From an uncultured Methanosarcinales archaeon (GTDB lineage Archaea > Nanobdellota > Nanobdellia > Woesearchaeales > UBA12501): a stretch of DNA of 64,000 nucleotides. The position numbers are program-made. This document shows positions 39,001-51,000 of the stretch, piece by piece. The stretch covers positions 19,336 through 83,335 of the forward strand of contig CAYNHV010000003.1 in the NCBI GenBank assembly GCA_964397315.1. Reading direction: 5' to 3'. The number at the start of each line of letters is the position of its first letter. The first letter of the stretch is position 1.

Positions 39001-42000
39001 AGCATTACATGGCCACGAACCTCGCGCTTGTGAGGCACCTCACCAAGGAAGAGGGCATACCCGGGGTTTATGTCACCCTCAATAAGCCTTTCAAGACAAT
39101 GAAGGCTGTCTTTGAATATTCAAAGATTGACACTGACATGATACTCTTCATTGATGCTGTTACAAAGACAGCAGGAGGCAAGGTTGAGAAGACTGACAAC
39201 TGCCTTTACATAGGAAATCCCGAGAATCTAAGCGACATATCCATGGCAATGGACCAGGCAGTGAGGTCTCTTCTTGCAGAGGAGAAGTTTGTCTTCTTTG
39301 ACTCTCTGAACACCCTACTGCTTTACAATTCCCTCAGCACTGTGGGAAGGTTCGTGCATTTCCTCGCCAGCAAGATGAGGGTGTGGGGAGTGAAGGGCAT
39401 AATCATAAGCCTTGAGAAGAAGGCACACAAGGAGCTGATAGATGAGCTGAACCAGTACTGCGACCTGAAGATGGAGTTTTAGGAAGCCGGCGCACTAAAG
39501 AGGTGGAATAATGAAGAACATTGTCAAGACGATATTTGCTGTGATAGCCATCCTGGCTGGAATAGCTGCTATAATAAGGGTGGCCGGCAGCTACGAGCTG
39601 ATAATACTGTTCATAACACTGACTTTCGGAGTGCTTGCGATAATGTGGAGCTTTATGGCATACTCCTCACTGTCAGCAGGATCTTCCCTCAGGAATTACA
39701 CAGGATATTTCCTTGCCTGCCTTATTTTTGTCCTGATATACTTTCTATGGAACAGCGCTGTCAAGCTTTTTGATATTGGAAGCTCCTGGGAATACCTGAG
39801 CTATATCTTCATGATAGCTGCTTATCTTGTCTTTGCCATAGCAGCCTACAAGATATACCATCTCGGCAGGGAATTCGGCTTCCAGAAAGAGGCTTCAAGG
39901 GTAAAGAAGGCAATGGACAGCAGGAAGAAAAAATAAGCCTGTTTTGTTTTTCTAATGTCTTTTTCTCAGGATATCTTATTAATCTATTGTTAATCTCACA
40001 TGCCAAAGAGCCCTGAGAGCGAGGACATGAGCAGCTCTCTTATGACAAAGAATACTGTTATGGACAGCAGCAGCAGGGGTATTATGTACTTTGCGCCGTC
40101 TTTGGCCTTGCCTTTTGTTATGAGGCCAAGGACAAGAGAGCCGAAAACACAGCTTGTGCTTATGAATATCAGGGAGTAATTCCTTATGAACTCAAGGGGC
40201 ATGGTCACTTCCTTCAGGGATATTGCGACAGATGCTGTCTTCGGGACATCAACAGACGAGAATGTCTCAACAAGTATCTCCACAACAACAGATGACAGGC
40301 TGAAAAGGAATGGCGCTGCAAGGCCTATTGCTATGAATATGAATATCCTGTACATGCCTATGCTTGCCCTTATCTTCTTGTCTGTTAGCTCCTGGTCTCT
40401 GAGGTCCTGGGAGGCCCTCTCAAGCAGCGGCGCAAGCGAGCCTCCCGCCCTTATCCCGTTTACAATGAGGTAGATTGTCTTCTCCAGCTTGTCAGACTTT
40501 ATCCTGGCTGAGAGGTCATTCAGCGCCTTTGTGATGTTCTTTCCTATTGCTATCTCCTTGCCCACCTTGTCAAGCTCTTTCTTGAAGGGGCCGAACTCAG
40601 GCCTTGCTGCCATGAACAGCGCCTTGTCTATTGTTATGCCTGCCCTTAGGTTGCTTGCCATTAGCTGGAGCGCGTCAGGAAGCACAGAGTCAACGAACCT
40701 TCCTTTTCTCTCTGCAGAGAGCGCCAGCCAGGTGAATATGAATGCCTGAGTGGCTGCAAAGAATATTCCAAACACTATCCAGGGGTTGTTGCTGAACAAC
40801 AGGAGGGAGTACACTCCCACCACTGCCGATAGCAGTATTGAGAAGGAGAGCTCAAATCCCAGGAACCTGTTGACCTCAAGGTCTATGTTTGAGTATTCCA
40901 GAAGCTTTACTATCCTCTTCTTCATCCTTCCCGGAAATATTCTTGCTACAAGCCTGTAGGTTGAAAACATATCCTCTCCCTCTCATCAACTCCTGGGTTT
41001 ACTGCAACTCCTGCATTGTCATGCTTTTCTTCACGCGTCATAAAAGATTAGGCCTCTTTGAAGCTATCATGCTTATGAAAAAGAACTGGAACAGCACCAC
41101 AAAACCGTACATGCCCCAGAAGAGCCCCTTAAGGGCCTGCTCCTTGAGCGAGAGAAAGGATCCTATGACCACAAAGAAGGTTACTGCAAGCGCAGGGACA
41201 ATCACCACAAGGAGCATGTAGAACATTGTCAGGGGGTTGAGCTTTGAGCCGTAATCCTGTATCTGCACGACCTGCTCTTCTGAGAGTGACTGGACCATCT
41301 CGGTTAGGACGATGCCCACGTCAGATCCGCTTTTCAGGGCAGTGACAATCTGCCATATCACCCTCTGGAAGTGGATTGAGGGGTTCTCTGTGGCAAGGCT
41401 TTCAAGAGCGTTTATCTGGTGCATGCCCGCGTTTATCTCCTTTACAGCCTTGCGGAACTGCTCTGATATCCCTCCATAATTCTCCTTTGACATGGAGGCC
41501 ATTATGTTATAGAGGGGTATGCCTGAGTTCACCTGCACCTGCATTGTTCTCATCGCAGGGAGCAGGTACTTCTCTATGTTCCTGACCTTCCTGTTCAGAA
41601 GCGCCCGGGGGTAGGTCATCTGCTGGAAGAGCATGAATCCTGTTATCAGCAGCGCGATTCCAGGAGACACCAGGAATGGATAGGGCGCGCCCTGTTTTAG
41701 AGTGACAAGCAGGGCTATGGCGAGGATGAAAATGAACATCAGCGCATCAGAGAAGACAGATGCCCCTATGTATTCCCTGGTCTCAGCCTCTATCTCAGCC
41801 CTCTTCAGATCAAGCTCTATGTCAGGGCTTGATTTTTTTATGAACTCAGCGAGCCAGTAGAAGAGAGGCGCGCCTCTTCTCACAAAACCTTCGGGAAAAA
41901 AGCAATAGGGGACTTTCATTTTTTGATTATCTTTCCGCTGTCAAGGTCTTTCTTCACAGCCTCAACCACTTTGTCCTTGTTAATGTAATACTCCCTCATC

Positions 42001-48000: not shown

Positions 48001-51000
48001 ATTATTGGAGGGGAGGTGTCATTTCCGGCGCCTATCCGGACCATGCCTGAGTCCAGCACCTCCATTGGAACTGAATAGGCTCCTGCATTGGTGTTAAGAG
48101 AGCCTGAGACAGGCGCGTTGGAGAAGGCTGATATCTCAAAAGGACTGCCCGAGAGGCTCAGGCTGAGGGAGACCTTCCTGTTGTCTATGCTGTAGCCCTC
48201 AACCCCTGAGGGCATGCTTATCTCAACCATGTCCCTGCTCCCGGGCCCGAGCGCGTACAGTGAGTCTGCTGTTCTTGCAAGCGTGTTTACCGTCTCCTCA
48301 GCCTTGTTAAGCCTTATCTGCTGGGTTGATTCTGTCAGGGCGATGTAGAATATGGGGATTATTATCACGAATATGACTCCTGTGATGAGAAGGTACTCCA
48401 GGCTTGCCTGGCCCTTGCCCTTCTTGCTCCTCCTGGAGAATACACCCTGGGTTTGAGTTATCCTTTCCACCTCTTTTTTCATACATTACGCGCTGATTGG
48501 CTTCTGTTTAATGAGTCTTTCAGAGGGCTGTCTATTTAAAGTTTGCTGTATCAATCATTATTCTCAGAATTCAGCATCTCATGCGCCCATAAAAAAATTT
48601 AAAAAGAGGTATCTTATCCTTTGGGCTAGCATGGCAGTGTGGAGCGCATCGGAAGCGTCAAGAATCGCATCAGGGAAGCATTTTATCATGCTTGCGGCAG
48701 CGCTCATGCTCTTTTTTACCCTTGCATTTTCTGCTTACGCTCAGGACAGCCTTTGCGAGAAGGACAACGAGAGCGTGCAGCTTTACCTGTTCTATGGAAA
48801 GGGATGCCCGCACTGCGCAAAGGAGATATCATTCCTTGAAAGCATAGGCGAGAAGCACCCTAAGCTTGAAGTCATGGAATTTGAGGTCTACTTCAACCAG
48901 ACCAACAGGAAGCTCATGCATGAGATGGCTGATGCGTATGACACAGAAGTGCAGGGCGTTCCCATGACCTTTATAGACAACAAGGTTTTCGTGGGATTCA
49001 GCAGCTCAATAGGCAGCTCAATTGAGGAAGAGATAAGAAGGTGCGGAGATGGGGGATGCATGTTTCCCTGCGAGAAGATGGGCGCAGAGAACATCTCGCA
49101 GGCCCTCAGGATTATAGGTGAGAGCTCTCCTGCAGAAAACCCTGAAAAGACAAAACTGATGGGGAGGATAACAATACCTGCTGTGCTGGGAGCTGCTGCT
49201 GTTGACGCAATAAACCCCTGCGCATTTGCTGTTCTCATAATCCTGCTCACTACCATACTTGCTGCGCGAAAGAAGAAAAGCGCGCTTTACGCAGGCCTCG
49301 CATTCTCTGCTGCAATATATATATCATACTTCCTCATGGGCCTCGGGATTTACTCAGCAGTGCAGGTGACAGGATTCACCCACATATTCTACTTTGTTGT
49401 TGCCATACTTGCCATAATAATAGGGCTGTTCAATCTCAAGGATTACCTTTGGTACGGGAAATGGTTTGTGATGGAAGTGCCCAGGTCATGGAGGCCCAGG
49501 ATGAAAATGCTTCTGAAGGGAGTGGCCTCAGCACCAGGGGCTTTCCTCATAGGGTTTCTTGTCAGCCTCTTTCTGCTGCCCTGCACCTCAGGCCCTTACA
49601 TAGTCATACTCGGGCTTCTTTCAAAGGCAGCCACAAGACCCATGGCCATAGGCCTTCTCCTGCTTTACAACCTTGTGTTCATCCTTCCAATGGTGATCAT
49701 AACTCTGGCTGTCTATTTCGGCGTTACAACAACAGAGAAGGCAGAGAAGTGGAGGCAGAGGAAGCTTAAGGTGCTGCACCTCATAGCAGGCATAATCATC
49801 CTCCTTCTTGGAATAGGAATGCTCGTAGCTTTGTACATGGGCTGGGTATGATTTAGCTTTAATAAGTCATGGTGCTTCCCGCTATTTAGAGAATTTGCTT
49901 GTGTTTATGATTCCAGATTCCTCCCACCTTAGAATGATTCTTTGTTTATTATTATGATCTCAGGTAGTTCCCTGAGGGATAATAGATTTATGATAATAAC
50001 TCAAGGTACTTCCCTCCCTTGCGAGGCTGGGTTAATGCTGATAGCTCCAGGTACTTCCCTCCCTTACTGCACAACCACTTAGCAGGTTCACACCTTCTGG
50101 AACAGCACAACTTTCCTCTTCTGCCTCTAATAAGCCCACCCCTTAATTTGCTTAAAGTGCTCTGTGGGTTGGTGCTCTGAGCATGTGTGAGGGGGATGGA
50201 GGGCGGGACTTATCCATCTGTAAGTGTGACCGGGGTGGTGGAGAACTCTGGATTAACCAAAACACTTAGATGGGTTTTTTAAGTATTATAGTACCTCTTT
50301 TAAATTGCGCTTTTTGTGGGATTGAGCGCAGCAAAAGCCCGCTTATGCTTGAACAGAGTAACGCCGTTCCGGCGGTTAAGTCTGGATTAACCAAAATACG
50401 CATAGAAGAGTCCGGAGGGGTATCCATTCTTACAATGAGATCATCCTTATCACAATGGAACCGTTCTTTAAACTCATAAAAACCATAAGCTTTATAAATG
50501 GTCTGCATTCCCCCTCAGCATAAGTATGTCTGGGCATCCTGAATGCCCTCGTAGCCCGCAAGGGCAGGTGATACAGTGATAGTGCGTGATGTACCGGTAA
50601 ATGACCTTATAGAGTCTCTGGCAGCAGAGCTTAAGAACGTGAAGGACATAGCCCCGCCCTCATGGGCACCTTATGTAAAGACAGGAGTGCACAAGGAAAG
50701 GCCTCCCTCCAGGGATGACTGGTGGTATGTGAGGGTTGCGGCAGTGCTAAGGTCTGTGGAAAAGCTAGGGCCAGTGGGAGTTTCAAAGCTTAGGACAAAA
50801 TACGGCGGAAGGAAGAACAGGGGCTACGCTCCTGAAAGATTCTATCATGCGTCAGGCAACATACTGAGGAAGGCCCTGCAGCAGCTTGAAGCAGCTGGTC
50901 TGGTGAAAAAGGCAGAGAAGGGCTCCCACAAGGGAAGGATAATAACGCCTGCAGGCAACAAGCTTCTCAGGAGCGCCGCAAGAGAGGCAAGAAGATTATA

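Follow-up and report, generated by a model that had tools for sequence, protein, structure and literature searches.

A putative type IV filament locus in a Woesearchaeota-type DPANN archaeon encodes a modular pilin with a cysteine-rich terminal domain

Related type IV filament systems

Type IV pilus-like loci are leading candidates for attachment and have so far been described in outline only. According to Hamm et al. 2024 (PMC11291902), they are conserved in cluster-2 DPANN archaea, including Woesearchaeota. The diversity of archaeal type IV filaments, DPANN representatives included, has been catalogued by Makarova 2016 and by Sivabalasarma & Albers 2026 (10.64898/2026.04.22.720090). Here, we describe such a locus in a stretch of 64,000 nucleotides, referred to as the window, from an uncultured archaeon of the GTDB order Woesearchaeales (assembly GCA_964397315.1, contig CAYNHV010000003.1, positions 19,336 to 83,335). 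Nine genes on the minus strand of the window, at 39996-48482, probably encode the assembly machine of a type IV filament, similar to an archaeal type IV pilus, in a Woesearchaeota-type DPANN archaeon. The window supplies a complete and well-conserved example, in which five families of pilins, a winged-helix protein that accompanies the secretion ATPase and is membrane-anchored in most relatives, and a modular pilin as a candidate adhesin can be named.

The closest described systems share a platform that is divided between two genes. This split is a hallmark of Epd-like or 'System 1' loci of methanogens, Thermococcales, and DPANN archaea (PMC6668835; 10.64898/2026.04.22.720090), and it is likewise reported for some DPANN loci of subsystem 4A. 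The locus has two platform genes with a single T2SSF domain each, as the Epd/'System 1' group does. The Epd pilus of Methanococcus maripaludis, whose reported role is adhesion, also combines the two platform genes with one ATPase and encodes several minor pilins in the operon. Further points of likeness are cleavage signals with glutamine at +1 and glutamate at +5 in some of the pilins (Q+1/E+5; PMC3875500), a major pilin encoded apart from the machinery (a candidate one in the present case), and a KaiC/FlaH-like secondary ATPase nearby (PMC6668835). The two systems differ in that no EppA peptidase is linked here, two of the five signals lack Q+1/E+5, and the leaders are longer. In addition, the candidate major pilin of the relatives has about 150 amino acids (aa) and a globular domain, whereas that of Epd is Flp-like, with about 60-75 aa.

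The bacterial Tad system, for which an origin from an archaeal system similar to Epd has been proposed (PMC6668835), resembles the locus in its TadA-like ATPase, in a platform of two half-size T2SSF proteins, and in the G/A/S-xxxxE[YF] signature found here in one pilin family. The operon genes and the tested flanks include no Flp pilin (about 50 aa), TadV, TadZ, or RcpA secretin. Unlike Tad, the gene order here is colinear with an unsplit platform, N-terminal half followed by C-terminal half, and the host is a single-membrane archaeon. The locus is likened to Epd/'System 1' because of the split platform and the Q+1/E+5 signals of some pilins. It is best read as an archaeal system of type IV filaments that would work like an Epd/Tad-type pilus; strict membership in Epd is not claimed.

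A third point of comparison is provided by bacterial modular and tip pilins, such as PilB and PilC of S. sanguinis, CofB of enterotoxigenic Escherichia coli, and PilX1 and PilX2 of Saccharibacteria (PMC8179133, PMC9934059, PMC11623550). In these proteins, as in the largest pilin of the locus, a module is grafted C-terminally to the pilin module, the gene lies inside a block of minor pilins, and the product is thought to be tip-exposed and adhesive. Saccharibacteria are episymbionts, and the same lifestyle has been shown for all cultivated DPANN archaea (PMC11291902). The bacterial proteins bear vWA, lectin, or beta-propeller modules, in contrast to the three immunoglobulin (Ig)-like domains and the Cys-rich knob predicted here. 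Moreover, the present protein is archaeal, carries an archaeal-type signal, and is known from its gene alone.

The operon itself belongs to an already known sort of locus. The published DPANN loci likewise stem from Woesearchaeota, Pacearchaeota, and Nanoarchaeota and combine a CpaF/TadA-like ATPase, TadC-like platform genes, and pilin-like genes. In the available parts of the DPANN and filament literature (PMC11291902, 10.64898/2026.04.22.720090), we found no description of a five-family pilin set or of a modular pilin with an Ig-like stalk and a Cys-rich knob. The same literature, to the extent available, yielded no description of a membrane-anchored or lysine-rich winged-helix partner of the ATPase, nor of the spread of a Cys-rich module on pilins across domains.

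Assembly machinery and gene organization

The locus encodes what sequence comparisons and structural models indicate to be the hallmarks of the type IV filament superfamily, namely an ATPase, a T2SSF platform, and class III-type pilins with a hydrophobic helix. All nine open reading frames (ORFs), which the original prediction had placed in this order on the minus strand, are present, intact, and arranged head-to-tail. The predicted secretion ATPase with two separate T2SSF proteins was recovered as one Pfam T2SSE match and two single-domain T2SSF matches.

The ATPase, a TadA/VirB11-family protein of 514 aa (41916..43460; T2SSE E=1.7e-32), retains the Walker A motif GGTGSGKT at residue 258, the Asp box at 283, Walker B at 327, and the His box at 352. 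Against NCBIfam, it scores 290 bits with the FlaI model (cutoff 550) and 172 bits with TadA. Among solved structures in the PDB, A. fulgidus GspE (2oap) leads with 246 bits, followed by FlaI (207) and CpaF (178).

Two platform proteins follow, one of 293 aa (41038..41919; T2SSF E=2.7e-16) and one of 324 aa (39996..40970; T2SSF E=1.3e-19), and the two are paralogous (E=2e-9). The first aligns with residues 6-248 of the 555 of ArlJ and 28-224 of the 484 of UpsF, and the second with residues 271-550 of ArlJ and 266-458 of UpsF. Hence, the gene beside the ATPase corresponds to the N-terminal half and the last gene to the C-terminal half of ArlJ/UpsF, and the platform is split colinearly. The pair had been described as TadB-like and TadC-like; the two T2SSF genes are there, but these labels would be swapped under the mapping of PMC6668835.

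Upstream of the ATPase gene lies a K/R-rich protein of 288 aa (43457..44323), with 33% K+R and a C-terminal winged helix (wH) of about 65 residues, in agreement with the K-rich helix-turn-helix protein proposed originally. Conservation in its family is limited to these C-terminal residues, and a profile of the domain matched, in the PDB, the IclR winged helix-turn-helix at E=4e-4 and eS25 at E=1.5e-3. A homology search with the wH region alone returned nothing, and one with its alignment only four fragments. Homologues mostly carry 2-6 N-terminal transmembrane (TM) segments; in the window and in related loci L001 and L004, an extremely K/R-rich stretch without TM helices takes their place. Judged from sequence, a winged helix that is anchored in the membrane and translationally coupled to the ATPase would more likely be an adaptor than a transcription factor.

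Genes of the operon are tightly packed. ATGA overlaps occur at three junctions, between the second and third pilin genes, between the K-rich gene and the ATPase gene, and between the ATPase gene and the first platform gene. Stop-to-ATG spacers measure 3 nt before the 159-aa pilin-like gene and 1 nt before the 285-aa gene. By resemblance to consensus, a TATA-box-like element, TTTAAATA, lies at 48533..48540 on the minus strand, 51-58 nt upstream of the first pilin ATG, a second AT-rich TATA-like box at 44369-44382 upstream of the wH/ATPase block, and an oligo-T tract at 39925-39936 past the last gene.

Conservation among related loci

A scan of a genome collection with the ATPase returned 588 relatives, mainly from Woesearchaeota, Pacearchaeota, or Nanoarchaeota, of which the best 80 were used for comparison of the loci. 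Nearly all of these 80 come from metagenome-assembled genomes (MAGs) labelled Woesearchaeota, Pacearchaeota, Nanoarchaeota, or Nanoarchaeia, and the top match, at 71% identity, is from a Woesearchaeota MAG. By sequence similarity, the ATPase relatives place the locus with Woesearchaeota-type DPANN archaea. The ATPase gene and two platform genes stand together in 71-72 of the 80 loci and the wH protein occurs in 75. The complete order of five pilins, K-rich/wH gene, ATPase, and two platform genes is found in about 20, including L001, L005, L006, L008, L012, L021, L022, L029, L031, and L063.

A second layout is built on the same ATPase/platform core in L002, L013, L020, L030, L032, L033, L038, L040-L043, and others. 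There, the five-gene set is replaced by a divergent small pilin, a protein of about 850 aa with the N-terminus KKG/xFFSLDALIAL (here and below, a slash marks the predicted cleavage site), and a pilin-like protein of about 318 aa. Another observation concerns L001, the closest relative, where a secreted protein of 925 aa (1074-3851) is encoded two genes upstream of the operon, with a 299-aa membrane protein between them. With its many sequons, repeats of Ig-like segments, acidic Cys-rich stretch, and TM anchor at the C-terminus, it resembles an adhesin or S-layer protein; nothing comparable is encoded at the corresponding place in the window.

Five families of pilin-like proteins

The five genes at the head of the operon encode proteins of 531 aa (46887..48482), 137 aa (46381..46794), 174 aa (45860..46384), 159 aa (45377..45856), and 285 aa (44518..45375). 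For three of them, an internal ATG is the likely start: that at 46794 for the 137-aa protein (maximal ORF 46381-46905, 174 aa), that at 46384 for the 174-aa protein (maximal ORF 45860-46498), and that at 45375 for the 285-aa protein (maximal ORF 44518-45411, 297 aa). As predicted, all five have a class III-type N-terminus, in which a basic stretch and one small residue precede an extended hydrophobic segment, and the motifs are conserved within each family. The three strings quoted in support, KKGKGQASLEY, SKRGQVEGSD, and KKCQVSVEAA, were located in the 531-aa, 174-aa (SKRG/QVEGSDLF), and 137-aa (KKC/QVSVEAA) proteins, respectively, and the other two N-termini read RKA/FVFSLD (continuing MLIAV; 159 aa) and KKA/VFFTLG (followed by F; 285 aa). 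As a control for chance, the whole 64 kb was scanned in six frames for [KR][GACS] followed by a hydrophobic stretch; in real ORFs, such N-termini occur only in the five operon genes and in a gene pair at 9641-11306.

Clustering of ORFs from the 80 related loci defined the families. The 531-aa pilin module and the 137-aa protein belong to the same family, whose 108 members are spread over 55 loci and share the motif [KR][GAS]/Q-x-[SAG]-x-E-[YF]. Within it, the 137-aa protein is, by sequence, a paralogue of the 531-aa pilin module (BLASTP with residues 3-138 of the larger protein: 24% identity, E=2.6e-4). The family of the 174-aa protein has 51 members in 50 loci and the motif [KR][AG]/Q-x-W-x-x-D-L. 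Those of the 159-aa protein ([KR][GA]/[FVL][IV]F[TS]LD) and of the 285-aa protein (K[GA]/[VIM][FL]FTL) are each present in 22 loci. In Pfam and NCBIfam, no meaningful match was obtained for the four smaller pilin families, the 159-aa protein among them, for the wH family, or for the PilA-like family described below.

In Methanococcus, the substrates of EppA have a short leader with Gly as its last residue, followed by Q+1 and E+5 (PMC3875500). This signal is matched by the 531-aa protein and the paralogous protein of 137 aa, and the 174-aa protein has Q+1 together with D+6, so that two or three of the five operon pilins count as being of this type. The 159-aa and 285-aa proteins lack it, and in the latter no acidic residue stands near the cleavage site. 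The E+5 followed by Y/F+6 of the 531-aa/137-aa family recalls Flp, TadE, and TadF, and there is a weak Pfam TadE match (E=0.04).

The ectodomains had been called rich in N-glycosylation sequons. Counts of N-x-S/T compared with shuffled sequence bear this out strongly for the 531-aa protein (24 versus 8.1 +/- 2.5) and for the 285-aa protein in its maximal ORF (8 versus 2.5 expected); the excess is marginal in two further pilins and absent from the 159-aa protein. The density reaches 12 times the cytoplasmic background of 0.39 per 100 aa and was counted toward extracellular modification.

A modular pilin with an Ig-like stalk

The first and largest gene of the operon encodes four successive parts. 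These are a class III-type signal ending KKGKG/QASLEY (residues 1-24; 48411-48482), a pilin module (25 to about 155; 48018-48410), three Ig-like domains (about 156-461; 47100-48017), and a Cys-rich terminal module (462-531; 46890-47099), all on the minus strand. Pfam gives weak Class_IIIsignal and Big_13 matches, the former at 15 bits against a cutoff of 23.7. In the AlphaFold2 model, with a predicted local distance difference test (pLDDT) score of 80.5, a 50-residue helix (28-78) leads into a beta domain (83-150), followed by three beta-sandwiches and a less confident Cys-rich end. Foldseek matched this model to tandem BIg/FN3 adhesins such as SiiE (E=2e-10).

About 32 full-length homologues share 38-68% identity with the protein and are annotated, without exception, as 'hypothetical' or UPF0333. 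By exact look-up, the protein was retrieved from a 4.2-kb Logan contig only, and the ATPase gave no match, probably owing to a different call of its start codon. Their alignment contains invariant Cys pairs at 187/228, 296/334, and 394/440, one in each Ig-like domain, and a terminal invariant set of C472, C476, C486, C518, and C527-529, which ends in CCC. The protein holds 16 Cys in total, six in the Ig-domain pairs and 10 in the last 60 residues; the C-terminal cluster of about 12 given in the original prediction is thus too high.

N-terminal pilin module and non-pilin modules are joined here in one polypeptide, as in the definition of a modular pilin. Across the loci, the product of the first operon gene ranges from about 135 aa, the pilin module alone, to about 930 aa with other, longer extensions. 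A variable C-terminal extension on a constant pilin domain places the 531-aa protein among the modular pilins as Raynaud et al. understand them (PMC8179133). Such pilins are tip-exposed adhesins in bacteria (PMC8179133, PMC11623550). From its modelled architecture and these bacterial precedents, the protein may serve in adhesion or host recognition. Loci L005 and L029 encode a full-length homologue and a PilA-like pilin together, which favours a minor, tip-exposed position of the 531-aa protein over a role as shaft subunit.

The cysteine-rich knob

The terminal module, or knob, is about 50 aa long with 8 Cys and has the consensus sC..YC...GY..G.CR.N...C..NGE.Y..GGD.YCTGG..aDTCCC. In the 531-aa family, its Cys number is 8 or 10 and never odd. 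The extra pair is gained or lost jointly, as expected for the predicted disulfides. No Pfam or NCBIfam model covers the knob, and its AlphaFold2 model (pLDDT 72) has no significant neighbour in the PDB.

A knob profile searched against 1.84 billion representative proteins, with a threshold of E<=1e-3, retrieved 156 proteins (clusters). In the best 150 of these, with 170 domain instances, exactly 8 Cys are present in 147 instances, and the knob forms the extreme C-terminus of 129 carriers. Two or three tandem copies after P/T/S-rich linkers occur in 22. A pilin-like N-terminus with E+5 is found in at least 75 carriers, at least 51 of which show the bacterial form G/[FYLM][ST]L[IV]E. Of the carriers tested, four score above the cutoff of the Pfam N_methyl model.

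Two carriers were traced to their contigs, L082 (knob-bearing stretch 9376-11383) and L083 (10001-11929), and both lie within minor-pilin blocks of bacterial type IV pili. The operons encode an MshEN-T2SSE ATPase, a T2SSF protein, several N_methyl pilins, and PilM, and one of the two then runs into IF3-L35-L20-PheST. In L082, the knob sits on two adjacent minor pilins, twice in one of them. The bacterial carriers are suspected, and no more than suspected, to be of candidate phyla radiation (CPR)/Patescibacteria origin.

What is new here, as read from the sequences, is an unannotated knob domain shared by archaeal and bacterial predicted pilins. It could conceivably be an undescribed binding domain, specialised for display at type IV filament tips, that has passed between DPANN archaea and bacteria (perhaps ultrasmall episymbionts) and is directed in both at one class of ligands, such as host cell-envelope glycans; we put this forward tentatively, as a possible rather than a probable reading. 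The knob is small enough for expression and ligand-binding tests, which makes the question of the pilus ligand directly testable. If the function were ordinary surface adhesion, the locus would be a routine member of a known system.

Proposed assembly and alternative explanations

In many relatives, a highly conserved PilA-like pilin of about 150 aa, with the motif KKG/QAAMEFLMTYGWAI, is encoded divergently and directly upstream of the operon. It is present in L005, L008, L014, L015, L017 (four copies), L019, L021, L022, L029, and L031, and this family is the obvious candidate for the major pilin. A working model of the locus can be assembled on this basis. A prepilin peptidase encoded elsewhere would cleave behind the small residue that comes after K/R, at sites of which two or three are EppA-like with Q+1/E+5. 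The ATPase, acting on the split platform, would then lift the mature proteins from the membrane and stack their N-terminal helices. The five operon proteins would form a priming or tip complex, a minor set, and the shaft would consist of a separate major pilin, for which the family with KKG/QAAMEFLMTYGW beside the operon in relatives is the likely candidate. The pilin module would anchor the 531-aa protein in the filament, most probably at the tip, with the three N-glycosylated, disulfide-stapled Ig-like domains as a stalk. The knob, with five probable disulfides, would be the ligand-binding end and might plausibly attach to a surface or a host cell. The wH protein and nearby KaiC-like ATPases would probably act as adaptors or regulators.

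Several observations weigh against a filament assembled in this way. As noted originally, the window contains no prepilin peptidase: none of the multi-TM ORFs tested matches Peptidase_A24, and no EppA-type (9-TM) peptidase occurs within the 64 kb. The sole multi-TM ORF lacking a Pfam match (20581-21138) contains not one aspartate and therefore lacks the Asp/GxGD residues needed for catalysis by an aspartic peptidase. In the 80 loci, the only multi-TM families that recur next to the operon are the platform proteins and a 4-TM protein, which indicates that the prepilin peptidase is generally unlinked. The shaft subunit is missing as well. By tblastn, no PilA-like gene occurs in the window, and none lies upstream of the operon in L001. 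Nor did the six-frame scan find, anywhere in the window, a pilin N-terminus on an ORF for a major pilin of about 60-75 aa without a globular domain. Class III cleavage of the five proteins is suggested by their motifs alone, the 137-aa protein has Cys at -1, which is unusual within its family, and the predicted leaders of several pilins have 18-31 aa compared with 5-13 aa in Methanococcus. Two further points are that the best solved relative of the ATPase is A. fulgidus GspE and not CpaF, and that the knob model is of medium confidence only and without a structural relative.

The missing shaft gene would suit a different product of the same machine. It might build a short pseudopilus or a membrane-anchored stalk, comparable to type II secretion or a bindosome, with the 531-aa protein displayed at the surface or with proteins driven across the S-layer, and with neither a long pilus nor a separate major pilin. 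No major-pilin candidate exists in the window or beside the operon of the closest relative, the five pilin-like genes are similar in number to a GspH-K-type pseudopilin set, and 10.64898/2026.04.22.720090 discusses archaeal type IV filament machines that present class III-signal proteins but make no long filaments. Many related loci, however, carry one to four conserved PilA-like copies, and multiple copies are typical of shaft subunits; in the 80 loci, moreover, neither class III-signal substrate-binding proteins nor secreted-enzyme genes are linked to the operon. A pseudopilus or stalk is therefore considered unlikely. Somewhat less likely still is a bottle-brush filament, in which the 531-aa protein or its small paralogue would be the major subunit and each subunit would expose an Ig-like stalk and a Cys-rich knob. 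The 531-aa gene does come first, behind the best TATA-like box, its family is the most widespread of the pilin families, the first gene of many loci encodes a plain pilin of about 135-150 aa, and the window offers no other candidate for the shaft. Against this stand the two loci, L005 and L029, that carry a homologue of the 531-aa protein plus a PilA-like gene, and the sterically unusual appendage of 350 residues on every subunit. Bacterial modular pilins are minor subunits (PMC8179133). The variation of the C-terminal module among loci with conserved machinery also fits an exchangeable tip adhesin better.

An archaellum for motility, or a pilus for DNA uptake or exchange, is highly improbable. 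Such an assignment could draw on the FlaI model, the top NCBIfam score of the ATPase, and on the KaiC/FlaH-like ATPases nearby. These scores nevertheless stay far below the model cutoffs (FlaI 290 versus 550, ArlJ 35 versus 550, ArlH 40-53 versus 215). Archaellins and the ArlC-G/X genes were not found, with a single weak Arch_flagellin match among 60 family members, and the platform is divided between two genes, in contrast to ArlJ. Genes for the binding or processing of DNA are not linked to the operon. The earlier exclusion of an archaellum thus holds, and the type IV filament with a separate shaft remains the probable reading.

Neighbouring genes and other features of the window

Downstream of the operon, two single-domain KaiC-like ATPases are encoded on the minus strand at 38004-38729 (Pfam KaiC E=1.9e-51) and 37295-38035 (E=5.7e-62). 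On the plus strand, they are joined by a degenerate KaiC-like/DUF7504 protein (38808-39482; DUF7504 E=2e-7) and by the 4-TM protein (39511-39936). KaiC-like ATPases accompany archaeal type IV pilus loci (PMC4858521), and the whole module at 37295..39936 is probably associated with the operon. Beside the operon in the related loci, KaiC-like genes occur in 46 of 80, DUF7504 in 13, and the 4-TM protein in 10. Orthology of the KaiC-like pair to ArlH was rejected because the scores with the ArlH/FlaH models are far under the cutoff.

Divergent from the Cys-rich pilin gene, on the plus strand at 48511-49851, lies a gene for a fusion of a glutaredoxin/thioredoxin-like domain (CPHC) with a DsbD/CcdA-like membrane part (NCBIfam DsbD E=2.4e-7). 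It was considered as a disulfide partner of that pilin and discarded, since no more than 1 of the 80 loci shows the linkage and the closest relative does not.

The second pilin-like gene pair (9641-11306, minus strand) encodes proteins of 412 aa (MRAKKG/VTQADWVLSIGIF...) and 141 aa (...GKKA/YLRTLEAVLAIALSF...), neither with a Pfam or NCBIfam match. Lacking homologues in the 80 loci and resembling none of the operon pilins, the pair was rejected as part of the system. Finally, two overlapping ORFs of 162 and 169 aa on the minus strand at 58588-59552 look, by reading of the sequence, like a split transposase-type gene; they fall in the 2-kb bin of lowest GC content in the window (58001-60000, GC 0.39; other bins 0.41-0.51).

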